Origin: Escherichia coli
GTDB lineage: Bacteria; Pseudomonadota; Gammaproteobacteria; Enterobacterales; Enterobacteriaceae
Direction: 5' to 3' (one strand)
Length of the DNA: 64,000 nucleotides
Assembly (NCBI RefSeq): GCF_013122565.1
Contig: NZ_CP053258.1
In this document: piece by piece, positions 3,810 through 29,816 of the stretch
Numbering within the stretch: the stretch's first letter is position 1
Layout of the letters: the number at the start of each line of letters is the position of its first letter
The notes under the pieces: generated by a model
Databases searched by the model: none
Seen by the model: the letters and a program-made list of their open reading frames with translations, nothing else
Told to the model about the DNA's origin: nothing
Made by a program: the position numbers and the translations under genes

Positions 3810-3837
3810 CGGCTCCTGAATCAGGAGCCGTCTTATT
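3810..3837. terminator. Bidirectional intrinsic terminator between convergent ytfL and ytfK
   Basis: Perfect inverted repeat cggctcctga/tcaggagccg followed by T-rich tcttatt. Confidence 0.7.
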
Positions 3838-21765: not shown

Positions 21766-23834
21766 GTCAGCTTGATGACACCATCCTTGATGCGCTGACA
21801 CACGTCACTTTCCCAAAGGGGTTTGTGTCAGCAGAGCCAACACCAATTGTCACCGTTGAGGATGTTGATTACCCGATCTGGCACGTTGATGCGCTGGTCG
21901 TTGGTAGCGGCGCAGCAGGATTACGTGCGGCAGTTGAACTTAAACGCCGCCAGCAAAATGTGCTGATCGCTACCGCCGGGTTATATATGGGGACGTCGGC
22001 ATGTTCTGGTTCCGATAAACAGACACTGTTTACCGCCGCTACCGCGGGCAACGGCGACAACTTCACCAAACTGGCAGAGGCACTGGCGAGCGGTGGGGCG
22101 ATGGATCACGACACCGCTTATGTCGAAGCGGTAGGTTCTCTGCACACTCTAGGCGGGTTGCAATATCTTGGTCTGGAATTACCGGAAGATCGCTATGGCG
22201 CGATTCTTCGTTATCAAACCGACCATGACGAAGCTGGGCGTGCAACCTCGTGTGGGCCGCGTACCTCAAGGTTAATGGTGAAAGTGCTGTTGGAAGAAGT
22301 ACAGCGCCTCGCCATTCCAGTGTTGACCAGTGCAACAGTGATTAAACTGCTGCATCAGCGTGACGAAAACGGCGAAGACCGCGTGGCAGGGGCAATCCTC
22401 GCGACCGGTCATCGCGCCCATAACCCATGGGGGCTGGCAATTGTGACTGCGCCCAATGTGGTACTGGCAACGGGCGGACCGGGCGAGCTTTATCGCGACA
22501 GTGTTTATCCACATAAATGCTTCGGCTCGCTGGGGCTGGCGCTGGAGGAAGGTCTGACGCTAACCAATCTGACCGAAAGCCAGTTTGGTATAGGCACACC
22601 GCGCAGCACGTTTCCGTGGAATTTGTCCGGCACCTATGTGCAGGTGATCCCGTATATCTATTCCGTGGATGCTGAGGGTAACGAGTATAACTTCCTCGCG
22701 GATTACTATCGCACCACCCAAGAGCTGGCTTCAAACATCTTCCGTAAAGGCTATCAGTGGCCGTTCCACGCCACGCGGGTAATGGATTTTGGCTCCAGCT
22801 TGTTAGATATGGCGGTGGCGCAAGAACAGCAACATGGTCGTCTGGTGTTTATGGATTTCAATCGTAATCCTGAAGCGGTGCCTGGTGATCTACCCTTCTC
22901 ATTAGATCGACTGGACGACGACGTTCGCGCGTATCTGGAAAATAACGACGCTCTGGCACCATCGCCCATCGAACGGCTGCAACGAATGAATCCGCTGTCT
23001 ATCTCGCTGTATAAGATGCACGGTTACGATCTCACCACGCAGCCATTGCAGTTTGCCATGAATAATCAGCACATGAATGGCGGCATTGAAGTGGATATCT
23101 GGGGACAAACATCCCTGCCCGGTTGTTTTGCAGTGGGAGAAGTAGCCGGTACTCACGGCGTTACCCGACCTGGCGGCGCGGCGCTGAATGCCGGACAGGT
23201 TTTTGCCGTGCGTCTGGCGCGCTTTATTGGTTGCACACAAAAGCGGTCTGTTGAGGAGGATGTCGCGCAGCTGGTAGCCTCATCTCTGCATATAGTCAGA
23301 GAAGTTATCGCTCAGGCACTGGCAAACGAGAACGGAATGGCGCTGGTAACGGTGAAAGAAAAAATCCAGGCGCGAATGTCTGATTACGCTGGATTTATTT
23401 GTCATGCCGATAAAGTTCGTCACGCCACCCGTGACGCCCTGCTGTTAAGTGAGTTTGTACAACAACACGGTTTGACCATCAAACATGTTGGCGAAATTGC
23501 CGAACTATTTATGTGGCGGCATATGGCACTGACTTCTGCCGCCATATTGACACAATTGACGCATTATATTGACGCAGGTGGCGGCAGTCGTGGGGCGCGG
23601 ATAATTATTGATCACTATGGGGAAGGTCTACCACAAACTCGACAGGGTGCAAAAGAAAAATGGCGTTTTAGATTGGAGTCTGAAAATGAAAGAGAATCAC
23701 GAGCAACGATTCAGCTTAACAATGGAGAATTTATAATAAATAAAAACAAGATACGTCAAATAATCAATTTCAAAAATAATTATTTTGAAAAAAATTGGCC
23801 GGAGTTTCTCCTTGGAGAAATCTATATAAAATAA
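21762..23834 (+). CDS. FAD-dependent oxidoreductase (fumarate reductase/succinate dehydrogenase flavoprotein-like), with unusual AT-rich C-terminal extension
   Basis: N-terminal dinucleotide-binding motif VVGSGAAGLRAA; 690 aa; ATGA start/stop overlap with upstream CoA-transferase. Confidence 0.8.
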   Translation: MSQLDDTILDALTHVTFPKGFVSAEPTPIVTVEDVDYPIWHVDALVVGSGAAGLRAAVELKRRQQNVLIATAGLYMGTSACSGSDKQTLFTAATAGNGDNFTKLAEALASGGAMDHDTAYVEAVGSLHTLGGLQYLGLELPEDRYGAILRYQTDHDEAGRATSCGPRTSRLMVKVLLEEVQRLAIPVLTSATVIKLLHQRDENGEDRVAGAILATGHRAHNPWGLAIVTAPNVVLATGGPGELYRDSVYPHKCFGSLGLALEEGLTLTNLTESQFGIGTPRSTFPWNLSGTYVQVIPYIYSVDAEGNEYNFLADYYRTTQELASNIFRKGYQWPFHATRVMDFGSSLLDMAVAQEQQHGRLVFMDFNRNPEAVPGDLPFSLDRLDDDVRAYLENNDALAPSPIERLQRMNPLSISLYKMHGYDLTTQPLQFAMNNQHMNGGIEVDIWGQTSLPGCFAVGEVAGTHGVTRPGGAALNAGQVFAVRLARFIGCTQKRSVEEDVAQLVASSLHIVREVIAQALANENGMALVTVKEKIQARMSDYAGFICHADKVRHATRDALLLSEFVQQHGLTIKHVGEIAELFMWRHMALTSAAILTQLTHYIDAGGGSRGARIIIDHYGEGLPQTRQGAKEKWRFRLESENERESRATIQLNNGEFIINKNKIRQIINFKNNYFEKNWPEFLLGEIYIK

Positions 23835-23937
23835 ACGCCTTTTAAATCGGTAGCTATTAAATAAATATTTTATGATTTGCAAAATTCACGCTTTTACATT
23901 GTGAGTATTTTCTATTGATAATATCAAAGGTTTAATC

Positions 23938-25218
23938 ATGAAAAAAATCAAGCACTATAGGTGGCATATTATCGTCTTAATATGTTTCATCACTGTAATT
24001 AATTATTTGGACAGAACAGCATTAGGCGTGGCCGCGCCCACAATAATGCAAACGATGGGGATAACTAAAGAGCAATATTCATGGGTTGTCAGTGCATTCC
24101 AGTTAGCATATACAATTGGACAACCTGTAATGGGATTCTTTATTGACCTTATCGGTCTGAAATTTAGCTTTTTCATTTGCATTATAATCTGGGGACTTGC
24201 CACTATGGGGCACGCATTAGCGGGATCCTGGCAAGGTTTGGCCTTTATGCGTGGCCTGATGGGAGTAAGTGAAGCCTCCGTCTTTCCCGCAGGGATAAAG
24301 ACTGTATCGACGTGGTTTCCTGCTAAAGAACGCGGTATTGCTGCGGGATTCTTCAACACGGGTACATCTCTTGGTGCCATGCTTGCTCCACCGCTTATTG
24401 CCTGGTGCATAATGTTCCATAGTTGGCAATTCGCATTTCTGGTTTCTGGCTGTCTGGCATTATTTGCGGCAGTGATGTGGTTTATCTTTTATAAAGACCC
24501 CAAAGATGCCAAAGGACTTTCTGAAGAGGAAAGACACTATATAGAGTCTGGGCAAGAAAAACATCTTGATTCTAATAAAAGTAAAAAAGCAACCATTCTT
24601 CATGTTATTAAAAAACGCAATTTCTGGGGTATTGGCATTACCCGTTTCCTGGCAGAACCAGCTTGGGGAACAATCAACTTTTGGGTACCTATATTTTTCG
24701 TTGAAACATTGCATTTCAGCTTAAAAGATATAGCAATGTTTATCTGGCTCCCGTTTTTATTAGGTGACTTGGGTTGTTTATCTAGTGGTTTTATCGCTAA
24801 GTTTTTTCACGATCGCGGGGTTAGCCTTCTTAATGCACGAAGAATTACATTTACATTCGCTGCAACAACGATGATGTCGATTGGTTTGGTTAGCATCGTC
24901 ACTAATCCGTACATTGCTGTATTACTAATTAGTATCGGTGCATTCTCACATCAATGCCTATCTACTGTTGTTGCCACTATGGGGGCCGATCTTTTTGAAA
25001 AAGAAGAAGTCGCAACAGTAGTTGGATTATCGGGAGGGTGTGGATATACAGGGCAACTGATATTTAATATATTCATTGGTGTATTCGTTGCTGCAATTGG
25101 CTTCTCGACATTCTTTGTGATACTTGCCTTCCTGGATATTATTGGTGCCATTATTTTATGGTCTGTAATTAGACCACCGAAACTTGTTGAACAAACAAAT
25201 TTAGTAACACAATCGTAG
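23938..25218 (+). CDS. MFS transporter, anion:cation symporter (ACS)-like, probable organic-acid permease
   Basis: 426 aa, 12-TM pattern, N-terminal YLDRTALGVAAP motif. Confidence 0.85.
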   Translation: MKKIKHYRWHIIVLICFITVINYLDRTALGVAAPTIMQTMGITKEQYSWVVSAFQLAYTIGQPVMGFFIDLIGLKFSFFICIIIWGLATMGHALAGSWQGLAFMRGLMGVSEASVFPAGIKTVSTWFPAKERGIAAGFFNTGTSLGAMLAPPLIAWCIMFHSWQFAFLVSGCLALFAAVMWFIFYKDPKDAKGLSEEERHYIESGQEKHLDSNKSKKATILHVIKKRNFWGIGITRFLAEPAWGTINFWVPIFFVETLHFSLKDIAMFIWLPFLLGDLGCLSSGFIAKFFHDRGVSLLNARRITFTFAATTMMSIGLVSIVTNPYIAVLLISIGAFSHQCLSTVVATMGADLFEKEEVATVVGLSGGCGYTGQLIFNIFIGVFVAAIGFSTFFVILAFLDIIGAIILWSVIRPPKLVEQTNLVTQS

Positions 25219-25269
25219 TTTTTATTTTTACCTATAGAATTTTAATCGAAAAAAAATAAAGGAAAGATT

Positions 25270-25749
25270 ATGTCTCAAACAGAAATTATTCTTCCTTCAG
25301 GAAGAGAACTTACTCCAGGTGAATATGGTTATGCCAATCTGGAACCTGGCGATCACTACCAGACTCCCGGTCTTAACGTAACAGAGTCACAGATTGTTGC
25401 TTTTGCGGGGATAAGCGGTGATTTTTTCGATGTTCATATGGATGATGAATTTGCAAGGGAAAAAGGATTTCCAGGACGCATTGCCCACGGTCTGTTAGGT
25501 TTAGCATTGACGGACGGCCTGAAGAATCGTTCTATTGTACGTTTACGTGCAGTTGCTACATTAAACTGGAACTGGTCATTCTGTGCACCATTATTGCCTG
25601 GAGATCATATTCACGCCGTTATTACTGTTGTTAAAAAACGCCCCACCAAACGTGAAGACCGAGGCATTGTGACTTTTGCTTTACAATTGTTTAATCAACA
25701 TGGAAAGATAATACAGCGAGGCGAAACTCTGCTGATGATGATGCAATAA
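25270..25749 (+). CDS. MaoC-like (hot-dog fold) dehydratase / enoyl-CoA hydratase
   Basis: 159 aa; GRIAHGLLGLALTDGL hot-dog motif; AGGAAA RBS. Confidence 0.8.
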   Translation: MSQTEIILPSGRELTPGEYGYANLEPGDHYQTPGLNVTESQIVAFAGISGDFFDVHMDDEFAREKGFPGRIAHGLLGLALTDGLKNRSIVRLRAVATLNWNWSFCAPLLPGDHIHAVITVVKKRPTKREDRGIVTFALQLFNQHGKIIQRGETLLMMMQ

Positions 25750-25760
25750 TCTGAGTTTGA

Positions 25761-25797
25761 AATACGTACCAACGAGTATGCTGGTACGTATTTCTTC
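25761..25797. terminator. Intrinsic terminator between convergent catabolic operon and HipA-like gene
   Basis: 10-bp perfect stem aatacgtacc/ggtacgtatt, 12-nt loop, followed by tttcttc. Confidence 0.65.
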
Positions 25798-25868
25798 GCA
25801 AACGCACTGTTTATGCTCTCTCCCTCATAATGACTGTTTCATCTAACTAATATTTCTAAATAACTGTC

Positions 25869-27137
25869 CTAAATTGACGACCTGAATGCCTCTGCCATTA
25901 ACTCTTGCTCACGATCAGGTAATCTAAGACGCTCGGCAATAGTTTGCCACTGACTGACAATCCCTCTAAAATTAGCAATAATGTCATCAGCTTCCGTCAA
26001 ACTAAGTCGAAAATACTCTGCAACTTCTCTAGCTAATTCCAAATCAAGTGCATTATCATTTTCCGTAATATTAAGCTTTAAACCGTCAGATCTGGAAACA
26101 GGATTCAAATCATATGCTTCAGAAAGCCGCCAACCTTTTCCCGGTATCAAGATATATCCATGATTACGTAAATGATCATCGGTATTAGAAACAAGAATAT
26201 TAAAAACAATTCTGGACCAGAGTTCTTTAAGGTCAGTATTGGTCTGCGCTCCGTGCCTGATAAGAACATCTGCTAATTCCAGATAACTTACACCTGTAGA
26301 GGCATCTTCACCATCCTGATGTCTGGTTAGTGTCATAGCCGAAGCAAAATGCAGACGCCTTCCCGCATTAGTGCGGTCAAAACGACGAACCATAAAACAA
26401 TGGTAATTGCTGGCAAATTTATGCGCCTGAGCAGGTGCAACATTCAGTCCACAGCCAACAGCAAGCGCATTAACGACCATTTCCCATCCACCAACATCAT
26501 ACTCATCTTTTGCACTGGGAAATTTAGCGATGTAAAGATGTCCGGCTTCATCAACCACACTGGCTTTTGGACGTGCACCCCCTAATGATCCCCCCGGAGC
26601 GATTAGCATTCTTAACCATTTTTGCCCCATGAGTTCTTTATTATCAGGATCTTCTTCAATTGCCCGGCTAGCCCTTTCCAGACTCGCTATTTCGGTAAAT
26701 GGTGGGGCTGCAACATTAATGCGGTTATCAAGAAACTCTCCAGCGTCTTCACGTTTGTATCGAAGAGCCCCAACCCGATAAAGATCATGAACACCTAATA
26801 GATAGTCAGACTCATAAAGGTGGGAGTCTTTATCAAATAACCCATCTCGAATATCCCTCTCAAAACGACGCTTCATTAGCATACGCCCCCAACGATCCGG
26901 GCAGGAATCACTAAACGCACCAAATTTATCCTTTGGAGGAATTGGGTACTGTGCTCCCTCATACAACATTATTTCAGGATCTAACTGAATGAAATTAAGT
27001 GCACGATCTGCAAGCGCCTTTTTATCGTACTCAAACTCAAATATCTCACGCGCCCGAGTGCGACGACTGTGTAAATAACCAATACGCGCAGGACCATCCA
27101 GGCCTTCCCAATCCGCATACACTCCGATTAATGCCAT
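25869..27137 (-). CDS. HipA-family serine/threonine kinase (type II toxin-like)
   Basis: 422 aa; P-loop-like GGSLGGARPK and catalytic NTDDHLRNHG motifs in HipA order; AAGGA RBS. Confidence 0.8.
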   Translation of the reverse strand: MALIGVYADWEGLDGPARIGYLHSRRTRAREIFEFEYDKKALADRALNFIQLDPEIMLYEGAQYPIPPKDKFGAFSDSCPDRWGRMLMKRRFERDIRDGLFDKDSHLYESDYLLGVHDLYRVGALRYKREDAGEFLDNRINVAAPPFTEIASLERASRAIEEDPDNKELMGQKWLRMLIAPGGSLGGARPKASVVDEAGHLYIAKFPSAKDEYDVGGWEMVVNALAVGCGLNVAPAQAHKFASNYHCFMVRRFDRTNAGRRLHFASAMTLTRHQDGEDASTGVSYLELADVLIRHGAQTNTDLKELWSRIVFNILVSNTDDHLRNHGYILIPGKGWRLSEAYDLNPVSRSDGLKLNITENDNALDLELAREVAEYFRLSLTEADDIIANFRGIVSQWQTIAERLRLPDREQELMAEAFRSSI

Positions 27138-27150
27138 AATTAATTTCCTT

Positions 27151-27642
27151 TTATCGGTTTTTTATCGGTTTTTTTATCGGTTGTAATAGTGCAGCAAGAG
27201 AGGTTGACGTTTCCCCTGGAATAGTTGGCGTTGAGTCTTTTGCCAGTGCTGTTAAATCCGTGGTGAGATGACCTTCTTTCTCGCGTTTCGTCTGAAATGA
27301 GGCTGTCTGAATCCCTTCTTCATTCTTAACTGATGAACGAGAAAGCCCTCTTTTTTTAATCAAACGGGAATCCTGGAGCTGATGCCCTAAGGCGTCTTCA
27401 GCTGCAAGCTTATTTAAATCCGTTTCCAGGCCCAAAACCTGCATCACAGACAAATATGCCCCTATCGTGACCCCTGCACTTCCTGCCTCCAGAGAACGCA
27501 ATGTGATTGGCGACATCCCTGCACGCTCAGCAACTTGCTTTGCGGTTAGCTTACGTCGTAAACGAGCAAGTTTCAGACGCTCACCAAATTCACTAAGCAT
27601 CTGATTCGTATAAGGGAGTAACGGTGCTGTTTTTTTACCCAT
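27151..27642 (-). CDS. XRE-family HTH protein (HipB-like putative antitoxin) with long low-complexity C-terminal tail
   Basis: 163 aa; HTH ~residues 16-75 ([23 protein letters not shown]); 13 bp upstream of kinase gene on same strand. Confidence 0.75.
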
Positions 27643-27663
27643 AGTGATAATATTTTATCTTTT

Positions 27664-27682
27664 TATGGCTATGATAGCCATA
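27664..27682. promoter_or_regulatory. Palindromic candidate operator upstream of the HTH/kinase operon
   Basis: tatggctat-g-atagccata, 9-bp perfect inverted arms, ~22 bp upstream of HTH start codon. Confidence 0.55.
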
Positions 27683-28000
27683 ATATTAGCATTTATTAGA
27701 TTGAACGCACCTGCAAAGCGTTCAGAATTATGGAAGAGATAATATCTTATCTTTTTATATATAAAAACAATAAAATAACAGCACATTAATATATAACTTA
27801 TTGTTTTTATTATCTTACAAGGGAGACACTCGCTGTATTGATGCTTTTGTCGTGTTTTATGTGTAAAAAACATGACACGAACTACCAGCGGCGAGACTGG
27901 GGGCTGGGGGCCTGGTATGGGTACTGCGAACTTTTTATAAAAGGAATAGCAAGAGATTTATGGAGGGAACGTCTATTTCTGCGGTTTTTATCACTTAAAA

Positions 28001-28030
28001 GCAAAACGCCGACCAATGGTCGGCGTTTTT
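28001..28030. terminator. Intrinsic terminator downstream of rplI (rpsF operon)
   Basis: Stem aacgccgacc/ggtcggcgtt with 4-nt loop, flanked by A-run and T-run (bidirectional capable). Confidence 0.8.
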
Positions 28031-28050
28031 ACGTCTCGTTGAATAACGAA

Positions 28051-28512
<462 letters not shown>

Positions 28513-29094: not shown

Positions 29095-29508
<414 letters not shown>

Positions 29509-29816
29509 TTATTCAGCCTCCTGTCTGGGTCAGCCGAATCCCGGGGAGGCAAGGAACGTGTTAAAGGTCGGCTGAAAAATGACGCGTTATAGTACTGACA
29601 TACCCCGCTAAACTCAAGGGCAGAGCCGAAATAAATCTCCCCTTTCGCAAATAACCTCTAAACCGCTGATTTGGAGTTCATCACACTTCATCATGGTGTT
29701 TTTTCGAACAACTGCATCAGAAATGGTCACCATCAACTTCTTTATCATTGATTAAAATTAAATCAGAAGATCATCACAGAGGAGAGCACACAAAGTCAGC
29801 CGTCGAGGAGGTATCT

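Follow-up and report, generated by a model that had tools for sequence, protein, structure and literature searches.

The HTH/kinase gene pair

The window (the whole 64-kb stretch of Escherichia coli DNA that was analysed) contains two adjacent genes on the minus strand, located downstream of rplI and preceded by a short palindrome. The features of the locus are the following:

25869-27137, minus strand: kinase gene, 422 aa, HipA-family Ser/Thr kinase (Pfam HipA_C, E 8e-47)
27151-27642, minus strand: HTH gene, 163 aa, HipB-like XRE-family protein (Pfam HTH_31, E 4e-11)
27664-27682, read on the plus strand: palindrome core, TATGGCTAT-g-ATAGCCATA
27663-27683, both strands: palindrome at its full extent, TTATGGCTAT-g-ATAGCCATAA, with perfect 10-bp arms
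28003-28029, minus strand: rplI intrinsic terminator, which isolates the operon from upstream transcription and forms the edge of the accessory segment

The HipA_C match of the kinase scores 160 bits against a cut-off of 30.5 bits, and the motif DDHLRNHG is present in the translation. The kinase gene starts 13 nt past the stop codon of the HTH gene, with AAGGA as a ribosome-binding site of its own. Among solved structures, the HTH protein is closest to PDB 9u9g (153 aa), annotated as 'XRE family transcriptional regulator, HipB' and matched by residues 1-98 (E 2e-29), including the N-terminal MxKKTAPLxP arm; neither a paper nor a DNA target was found for this entry in a literature search. The solved structures closest in sequence to the kinase are HipT chains (E ~4e-8), and no match to the HipA N-terminal models was identified. 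Among the NCBIfam equivalogs, the HTH protein reached 18.4 bits with the HipB model NF007271, below its cut-off of 79, and the kinase had no HipA match, the best being the YjjJ model with 44 bits against a cut-off of 401. The PADLOC defence-system models returned generic HTH matches only, and no match to the kinase clade was identified in the supplementary tables of Gerdes et al. 2021. The pair predicted from the translations, in which the HipA_C kinase gene comes directly after the HTH gene in the same orientation, has the structure that defines a hipBA-type module. A hipBST module was also considered and rejected, the gap of 13 nt holding no separate hipS gene and the kinase being 422 aa and not ~335 aa long.

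In the family alignment the N-terminal 95 residues of the HTH protein are nearly invariant; a linker of hypervariable sequence comes next, and a motif at the C-terminus is conserved. The N-terminal segment has an invariant lysine-rich arm of 10 residues, which could contact the AATATT core of the DNA boxes described below; the motif after the linker is TSxSLAALLKPxKKP and may be a kinase-binding element or a degradation tag.

The HTH family was identified in Salmonella, Serratia, Erwinia, Yersinia, Pseudomonas, Burkholderia, Achromobacter and others. In 71 of 80 loci the gene immediately after the HTH gene encodes a kinase homologue with 62-81% identity. Of 5426 complete E. coli genomes, roughly 1040 (about a fifth, ST131 included) have the pair at ~94% identity, located at the same site downstream of rplI and annotated as HipA-family toxin and HTH protein. 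The hipBA-like module is accessory DNA, since K-12-like genomes share sequence with the window only from the rplI terminator onwards. The neighbouring FAD-oxidoreductase, MFS and MaoC genes (window 22000-28060) are 89-97% identical to their counterparts, and the gene order with MaoC resembles that of E. albertii.

Damage to the kinase gene was observed in several Escherichia genomes, in the form of a frameshift (ST131 strain 4224), a split into two ORFs or a deletion, with the HTH gene and the proximal operator intact (loci L001, 3021-4288; L089, 1083-1680; L090, 981-1100). Judged from these alleles, the decay looks like toxin loss leaving an orphan repressor. The persistence of the HTH gene would be compatible with a toxic kinase neutralised by the HTH protein, without being proof of it. 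A second copy of the HTH gene was identified in E. coli GPEC709 (L087, 2054-2542), with both proximal boxes intact, on an integrative element together with AbiE, a MobH relaxase and an integrase; downstream of it no kinase is annotated and another small HTH gene is found instead.

Two further elements were observed in the vicinity. The RpsF leader (Rfam RF02893, 110 bits), a known element, is located upstream of rpsF at 29488-29572 on the minus strand. A 7-bp tandem duplication (CTGGGGG twice) is located in intergenic DNA at 27897-27910, the 7 bp being present once in the E. coli alleles.

The palindrome upstream of the HTH gene

The first-pass annotation had described a palindrome with perfect 9-bp arms at 27664-27682, about 22 bp before the HTH start codon. 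The palindrome is seen in the sequence and is even longer than described, position 27663 (T) pairing with 27683 (A) to give perfect arms of 10 bp, and the measured distance between its end and the HTH ATG (27642, minus strand) is 21 nt. Additional half-sites, which the same annotation suggested looking for in 27643-27900, were searched for in that intergenic DNA and no extra copy with at most one mismatch was identified.

The palindrome exceeds chance expectation. The 64-kb window has just three different perfect palindromes whose arms are 9 bp or longer and whose loop is 3 nt or shorter, the other two being at ~3810-3830 and at 28006-28026 (the rplI terminator). Expressed as counts, in which each palindrome is counted twice, this is 6 against 1.5 +/- 1.3 in first-order Markov simulations. 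Such a palindrome is contained in 1.0% of 5000 simulated 408-bp regions of local composition (35% GC), and the probability of a perfect 10-bp palindrome is ~4e-4 per shuffled spacer. Terminator prediction, for which a GC-rich stem followed by a T-run is required, made no call at the palindrome, and an Rfam search at the same place gave no match at E values up to 1.

Conserved 17-bp boxes

The upstream DNA of 80 homologous loci from Gamma- and Betaproteobacteria was aligned without gaps before the start codon. The conserved cis elements of these loci are 17-bp boxes with the consensus AGTGCYAATATTYYGGC, which is pseudo-palindromic (TGCnA-N6-TnGCA, with AATATT as its core). The consensus of the whole stretch, as read on the gene strand, runs AGTGCTAWTATTCTGGC, ~17 nt, GAAGGAATAWTGGCAC and at once the ATG, the two conserved blocks being inverted copies of one 17-bp box. 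In the alignment of this proximal pair, O1, conservation is seen in columns 3-17 and 35-50 and is lacking in columns 18-30. The mean information per column, calculated without the window on the 39 sequences left after dereplication, is 1.25 bits in box A, 1.02 in box B and 0.26 in the palindrome columns outside the boxes. The 50 bp before the start codon are the most conserved non-coding DNA of the locus.

The boxes are conserved not only in sequence but also in number, orientation and spacing. When the 400 bp upstream of each locus were scanned with a single-box matrix (78 loci), a proximal convergent pair at -42/-10 from the ATG was identified in 68 of 78 loci, in 67 of them with a spacing of exactly 32 bp; in those 68 loci box B is at -10/-9. 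A distal convergent pair of the same spacing was identified in 51 of the 78 (exactly 32 bp in 50), and the distance from pair to pair ranges from 71 to 156 bp across loci. A spacing of 32 bp from centre to centre puts the AATATT cores 33 bp apart, or about three turns of the helix. The distal boxes yield the same consensus although they were left out of matrix building, which makes them an independent check. The background is one box match and no pair in 88.5 kb of kinase coding DNA. As expected of an operator, the AATATT boxes co-occur with the repressor gene across the homologous loci.

The window was scanned with a matrix built from non-Escherichia loci only (~128,000 scored positions), and the elements found upstream of the HTH gene are the following:

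27676-27692, minus strand: box A, ATGCTAATATTATGGCT on the gene strand, 20.7 bits, rank 1, upstream member of O1
27644-27660, plus strand: box B, GTGATAATATTTTATCT, 19.6 bits, rank 2, inverted with respect to box A
27768-27784, minus strand: box D, GTGCTGTTATTTTATTG, 14.8 bits, rank 4, upstream member of the distal pair O2
27736-27752, plus strand: box C, GAGATAATATCTTATCT, 8.2 bits, rank 23, downstream and degenerate member of O2
27752-27767, both strands: 16-bp perfect palindrome, TTTTTATATATAAAAA, exactly at the dyad centre of O2

The centre of box A is 42 nt before the ATG and that of box B 10 nt, with 1 nt between box B and the start codon. The gene-strand sequence of O1 is ATGCTAATATTATGGCT-ATCAT-AGCCATAAAAAG-ATAAAATATTATCAC-T-ATG. 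The O2 pair of the window is located 92 bp farther upstream than O1. Box C is a direct repeat of box B shifted by 92 bp (repeat D1, 27643-27666 and 27735-27758, 92% identical) and scores 12-14 bits in E. coli alleles, against 8.2 in the window. E. coli alleles retain the O2 palindrome, and E. albertii has it in degenerate form.

Other sequences resembling these elements were observed. A 13-bp perfect inverted repeat (27761-27773 and 27798-27810, ATAAAAACAATAA and TTATTGTTTTTAT, with a 24-nt loop) overlaps box D and is probably non-functional, because the copy at 27761-27773 has three uncompensated changes in E. albertii. The third-ranking match of the scan, a box-like 17-mer at 25145-25161 (GTGCCATTATTTTATGG, 15.6 bits), falls within the gene for the MFS transporter, lacks a partner box and is probably due to chance.

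The palindrome across homologous loci

One arm of the palindrome (27674-27682) overlaps box A and is its TATGGC flank; the other (27664-27672) is located in the unconserved spacer between boxes A and B. The palindrome is absent elsewhere in the family. Both boxes are kept at the same spacing, with an unrelated spacer and no palindrome, in Salmonella, Serratia, Erwinia, Atlantibacter and Pluralibacter and in the ICE-borne copy of E. coli GPEC709. Among 39 dereplicated non-Escherichia loci the longest perfect palindrome of the spacer has a mean of 3.3 bp and a maximum of 6, against 3.5 in shuffled spacers. Outside Escherichia, then, the palindrome does not accompany the repressor at any of the homologous loci.

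Three allele types were identified in Escherichia, all of which keep the outer 7-bp arms TATGGCT and AGCCATA. The inner 5 nt vary among them (ATCAT, ACCAA and GCCAA) by changes that are non-compensatory. The comparison by segment of the window with E. albertii-type alleles gave the following differences:

Inter-operator DNA: 12/42 (29%)
Distal operator O2: 9/49
Palindrome, inner 5 nt: 2-3/5
Palindrome, spacer arm and A-tract: 0/11
Box A: 0-1/17
Box B: 0/17

The spacer arm may be under lineage-specific constraint, as suggested by the 0/11 (~P 0.02, from what is essentially one independent comparison). Judged from the homologues, the palindrome is a feature of Escherichia only and not the main operator; it appears to have arisen within this genus, and autoregulation in the family would not need it.

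Two ways of joining the palindrome to the boxes were tried and rejected. It is not the centre of the dyad formed by boxes A and B, its own centre being at 27673 and the midpoint of the AATATT cores at 27668, 5 bp off. Neither is it a fifth box: its half-sites, TGGCT-N5-AGCCA, are everted with respect to those of the box, TGCYA-N6-TRGCA, and are spaced by N5 and not N6.

Predicted promoter, leader and translation start

A generic sigma-70 scan for -35 and -10 elements identified no promoter on the minus strand, and a -35 is not evident. The following element was recognized within box A:

27683-27691, minus strand: predicted extended -10, TGcTAATAT (TG at 27690-27691, hexamer at 27683-27688)

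The TG and positions A2 and T6 of the hexamer are among the best-conserved columns of the 80-locus alignment, and the Pseudomonas counterpart is TGcTATTAT. We infer that this extended -10 is the promoter of the operon. A promoter in box A would explain why box B keeps a fixed distance from the ATG, and part of the conservation of box A could come from such a role and not from repressor binding. The only sigma-70-like match in the region is TTAATA-16-TATTAT at 27786-27813 on the plus strand, directed away from the HTH gene and towards the rplI terminator. It was also observed that each box in the '<' orientation resembles an extended -10 for the plus strand.

The leader before the HTH ATG, AAAAAGATAAAATATTATCACTATG, has a poor Shine-Dalgarno, which bears out the remark of the first-pass annotation that no good one precedes the annotated start. 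The same columns in the Pseudomonas homologues read TGAAGGAATAATGGCACATG and contain AAGGA. GAAGGA, which forms the left half of box B in Pseudomonas, would serve there as Shine-Dalgarno as well, and the element is probably missing in Escherichia because the same half of box B has decayed to AAAGAT.

Comparison with known HipB operators

In E. coli K-12, HipB binds cooperatively to four TATCC-N8-GGATA operators and represses hipBA, HipA reinforcing the repression (PMC3376134). The locus described here is like K-12 hipBA in having an XRE-type HTH gene directly upstream of a HipA-family kinase gene and in having four dyad-symmetric sites, predicted in this case, upstream of and over the promoter. 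The motif is different, as no TATCC-N8-GGATA was identified in 27643-28050 with up to 2 mismatches, and so is the arrangement, the K-12 sites being separated by 10, 21 and 10 bp (PMC4150777) and those described here forming two convergent 32-bp pairs. K-12 HipB has 88 aa, against 163 aa in the HTH protein of the window.

In Shewanella oneidensis, hipBA has four GTGTA-N6-TACAC operators (PMC4150777). The likeness in this case comprises half-sites of 5-N6-5 geometry in a 16-bp site, four copies and a spacing of about three turns (34 bp there; PMC4150777). The half-sites differ, however: no GTGTA-N6-TACAC is present in the region, where the half-site is TGCYA and the core AATATT. Moreover, the S. 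oneidensis sites are evenly spaced whereas the boxes described here are paired and convergent, and unlike in S. oneidensis none of them is inside the HTH reading frame.

At the level of predicted sites, the logic of four sites and the 5-N6-5 geometry match those of published HipB operators. The motif itself, the convergent pairing at three turns and the box abutting the start codon are new, being undescribed in the searchable, limited literature; a search for the box sequence returned nothing relevant, and one for any member of the HTH family found no binding or transcript-start data.

Proposed mechanism and alternative explanations

The region is very probably the autoregulatory operator/promoter of a hipBA-like operon, as argued by the arrangement of its predicted sites. 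The first-pass annotation had proposed a candidate autoregulatory operator, and this stands for the region, which has the layout of an operator over a promoter; it does not stand for the palindrome itself, which is restricted to Escherichia and is not what is conserved, the boxes being conserved instead. The reading preferred here, and considered likely, is that the palindrome lies in the core of O1 of this operon and that the four paired boxes are the recognition elements. The protein binding, promoter position and mechanism of repression that we infer are as follows. Each box would be bound by one HTH dimer, by analogy with the HipBA systems of K-12 and Shewanella, and the kinase would probably reinforce the binding as in other HipBA systems. 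A repressor on box A would cover the extended -10 and exclude RNA polymerase. If the promoter is the one in box A, the transcript would start near 27675-27677, inside the palindrome, and the leader would be of ~33 nt, its last 17 nt being box B. The palindrome would be at most an auxiliary, lineage-specific addition to O1.

The alternatives differ in the role assigned to the palindrome. That it is itself the main autoregulatory operator, bound by an HTH dimer, is suggested by its perfect dyad symmetry, 21 nt before the ATG and over the predicted transcript start, by the binding of HipB proteins to palindromes (PMC3376134) and by the presence of the outer 7-bp arms in all three Escherichia allele types. 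Such an operator should however be found with the same protein elsewhere, and the palindrome is absent from every non-Escherichia homologue despite a nearly invariant DNA-binding domain. Its half-sites, moreover, have no further copies in the intergenic region and are everted with respect to the box (TGGCT-N5-AGCCA against TGCYA-N6-TRGCA), and the four conserved boxes already suffice for a four-site operator of the HipB type, so that we regard this role as unlikely. The restriction to one genus also fits a palindrome with no function at all, produced by neutral mutation in an AT-rich spacer, for example by the template-switch correction of a quasi-palindrome that was seeded by the constrained flank of box A. 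The two inner changes of E. albertii break two different pairs and are non-compensatory, and the O2 palindrome and the nearby 13-bp inverted repeat are not kept in that species, which suggests that palindromes come and go in this region. Against a neutral origin are the 0/11 differences in the spacer arm and A-tract, compared with 29% in the flanking DNA, and the very low a priori probability of ten perfect pairs; on balance it is unlikely.

A function in RNA would require a transcript starting upstream of box A, in which the palindrome would act as a hairpin of the 5' leader and affect mRNA stability or translation of the HTH gene. The predicted structure is a 9-bp stem with a 3-nt loop (the whole 61-nt leader having -11.8 kcal/mol and a z of -3.6), a 7-bp stem with a 5-nt loop is kept in the E. 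albertii and L090 variants, and the Shine-Dalgarno of the HTH gene is poor. The hairpin would nevertheless not be transcribed whole, because with the only plausible -10, that of box A, transcription would begin within the 5' arm. No promoter was found upstream on the minus strand by the generic scan, Rfam gave no match and the other members of the family do without the hairpin, all of which makes this role very improbable. Still less credible is a site for a different, host-encoded regulator of Escherichia, gained after the module settled by rplI. A feature that is genus-specific, possibly constrained and located over the predicted start site would suit such a regulator, but no second copy of the half-site is present nearby. 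To our knowledge the palindrome resembles no binding site of an E. coli regulator.

A further possibility concerns the boxes. Pairs three turns apart, present twice per promoter from Escherichia to Burkholderia, might reflect a higher-order assembly unlike the HipBA-DNA complexes of K-12 and Shewanella, for example a HipB tetramer or dimers bridged by the kinase. The palindrome would then add a lineage-specific contact or form a hairpin of the leader that tunes the complex. We give this arrangement only a small chance of being correct.

With the four paired boxes as the probable recognition elements, the palindrome is a minor, lineage-specific feature. The biology is that of a standard autoregulated toxin-antitoxin promoter and its general significance is limited. 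A plausible but wrong target, the palindrome, is replaced by a testable definition of the operator, and EMSA, footprinting and reporter work should probe the AATATT boxes and their 32-bp pairing and not the central palindrome alone. This definition applies to a widespread HipBA-like family, found in about a fifth of the complete E. coli genomes, ST131 included, and in many Serratia, Erwinia, Pseudomonas, Burkholderia and Achromobacter.
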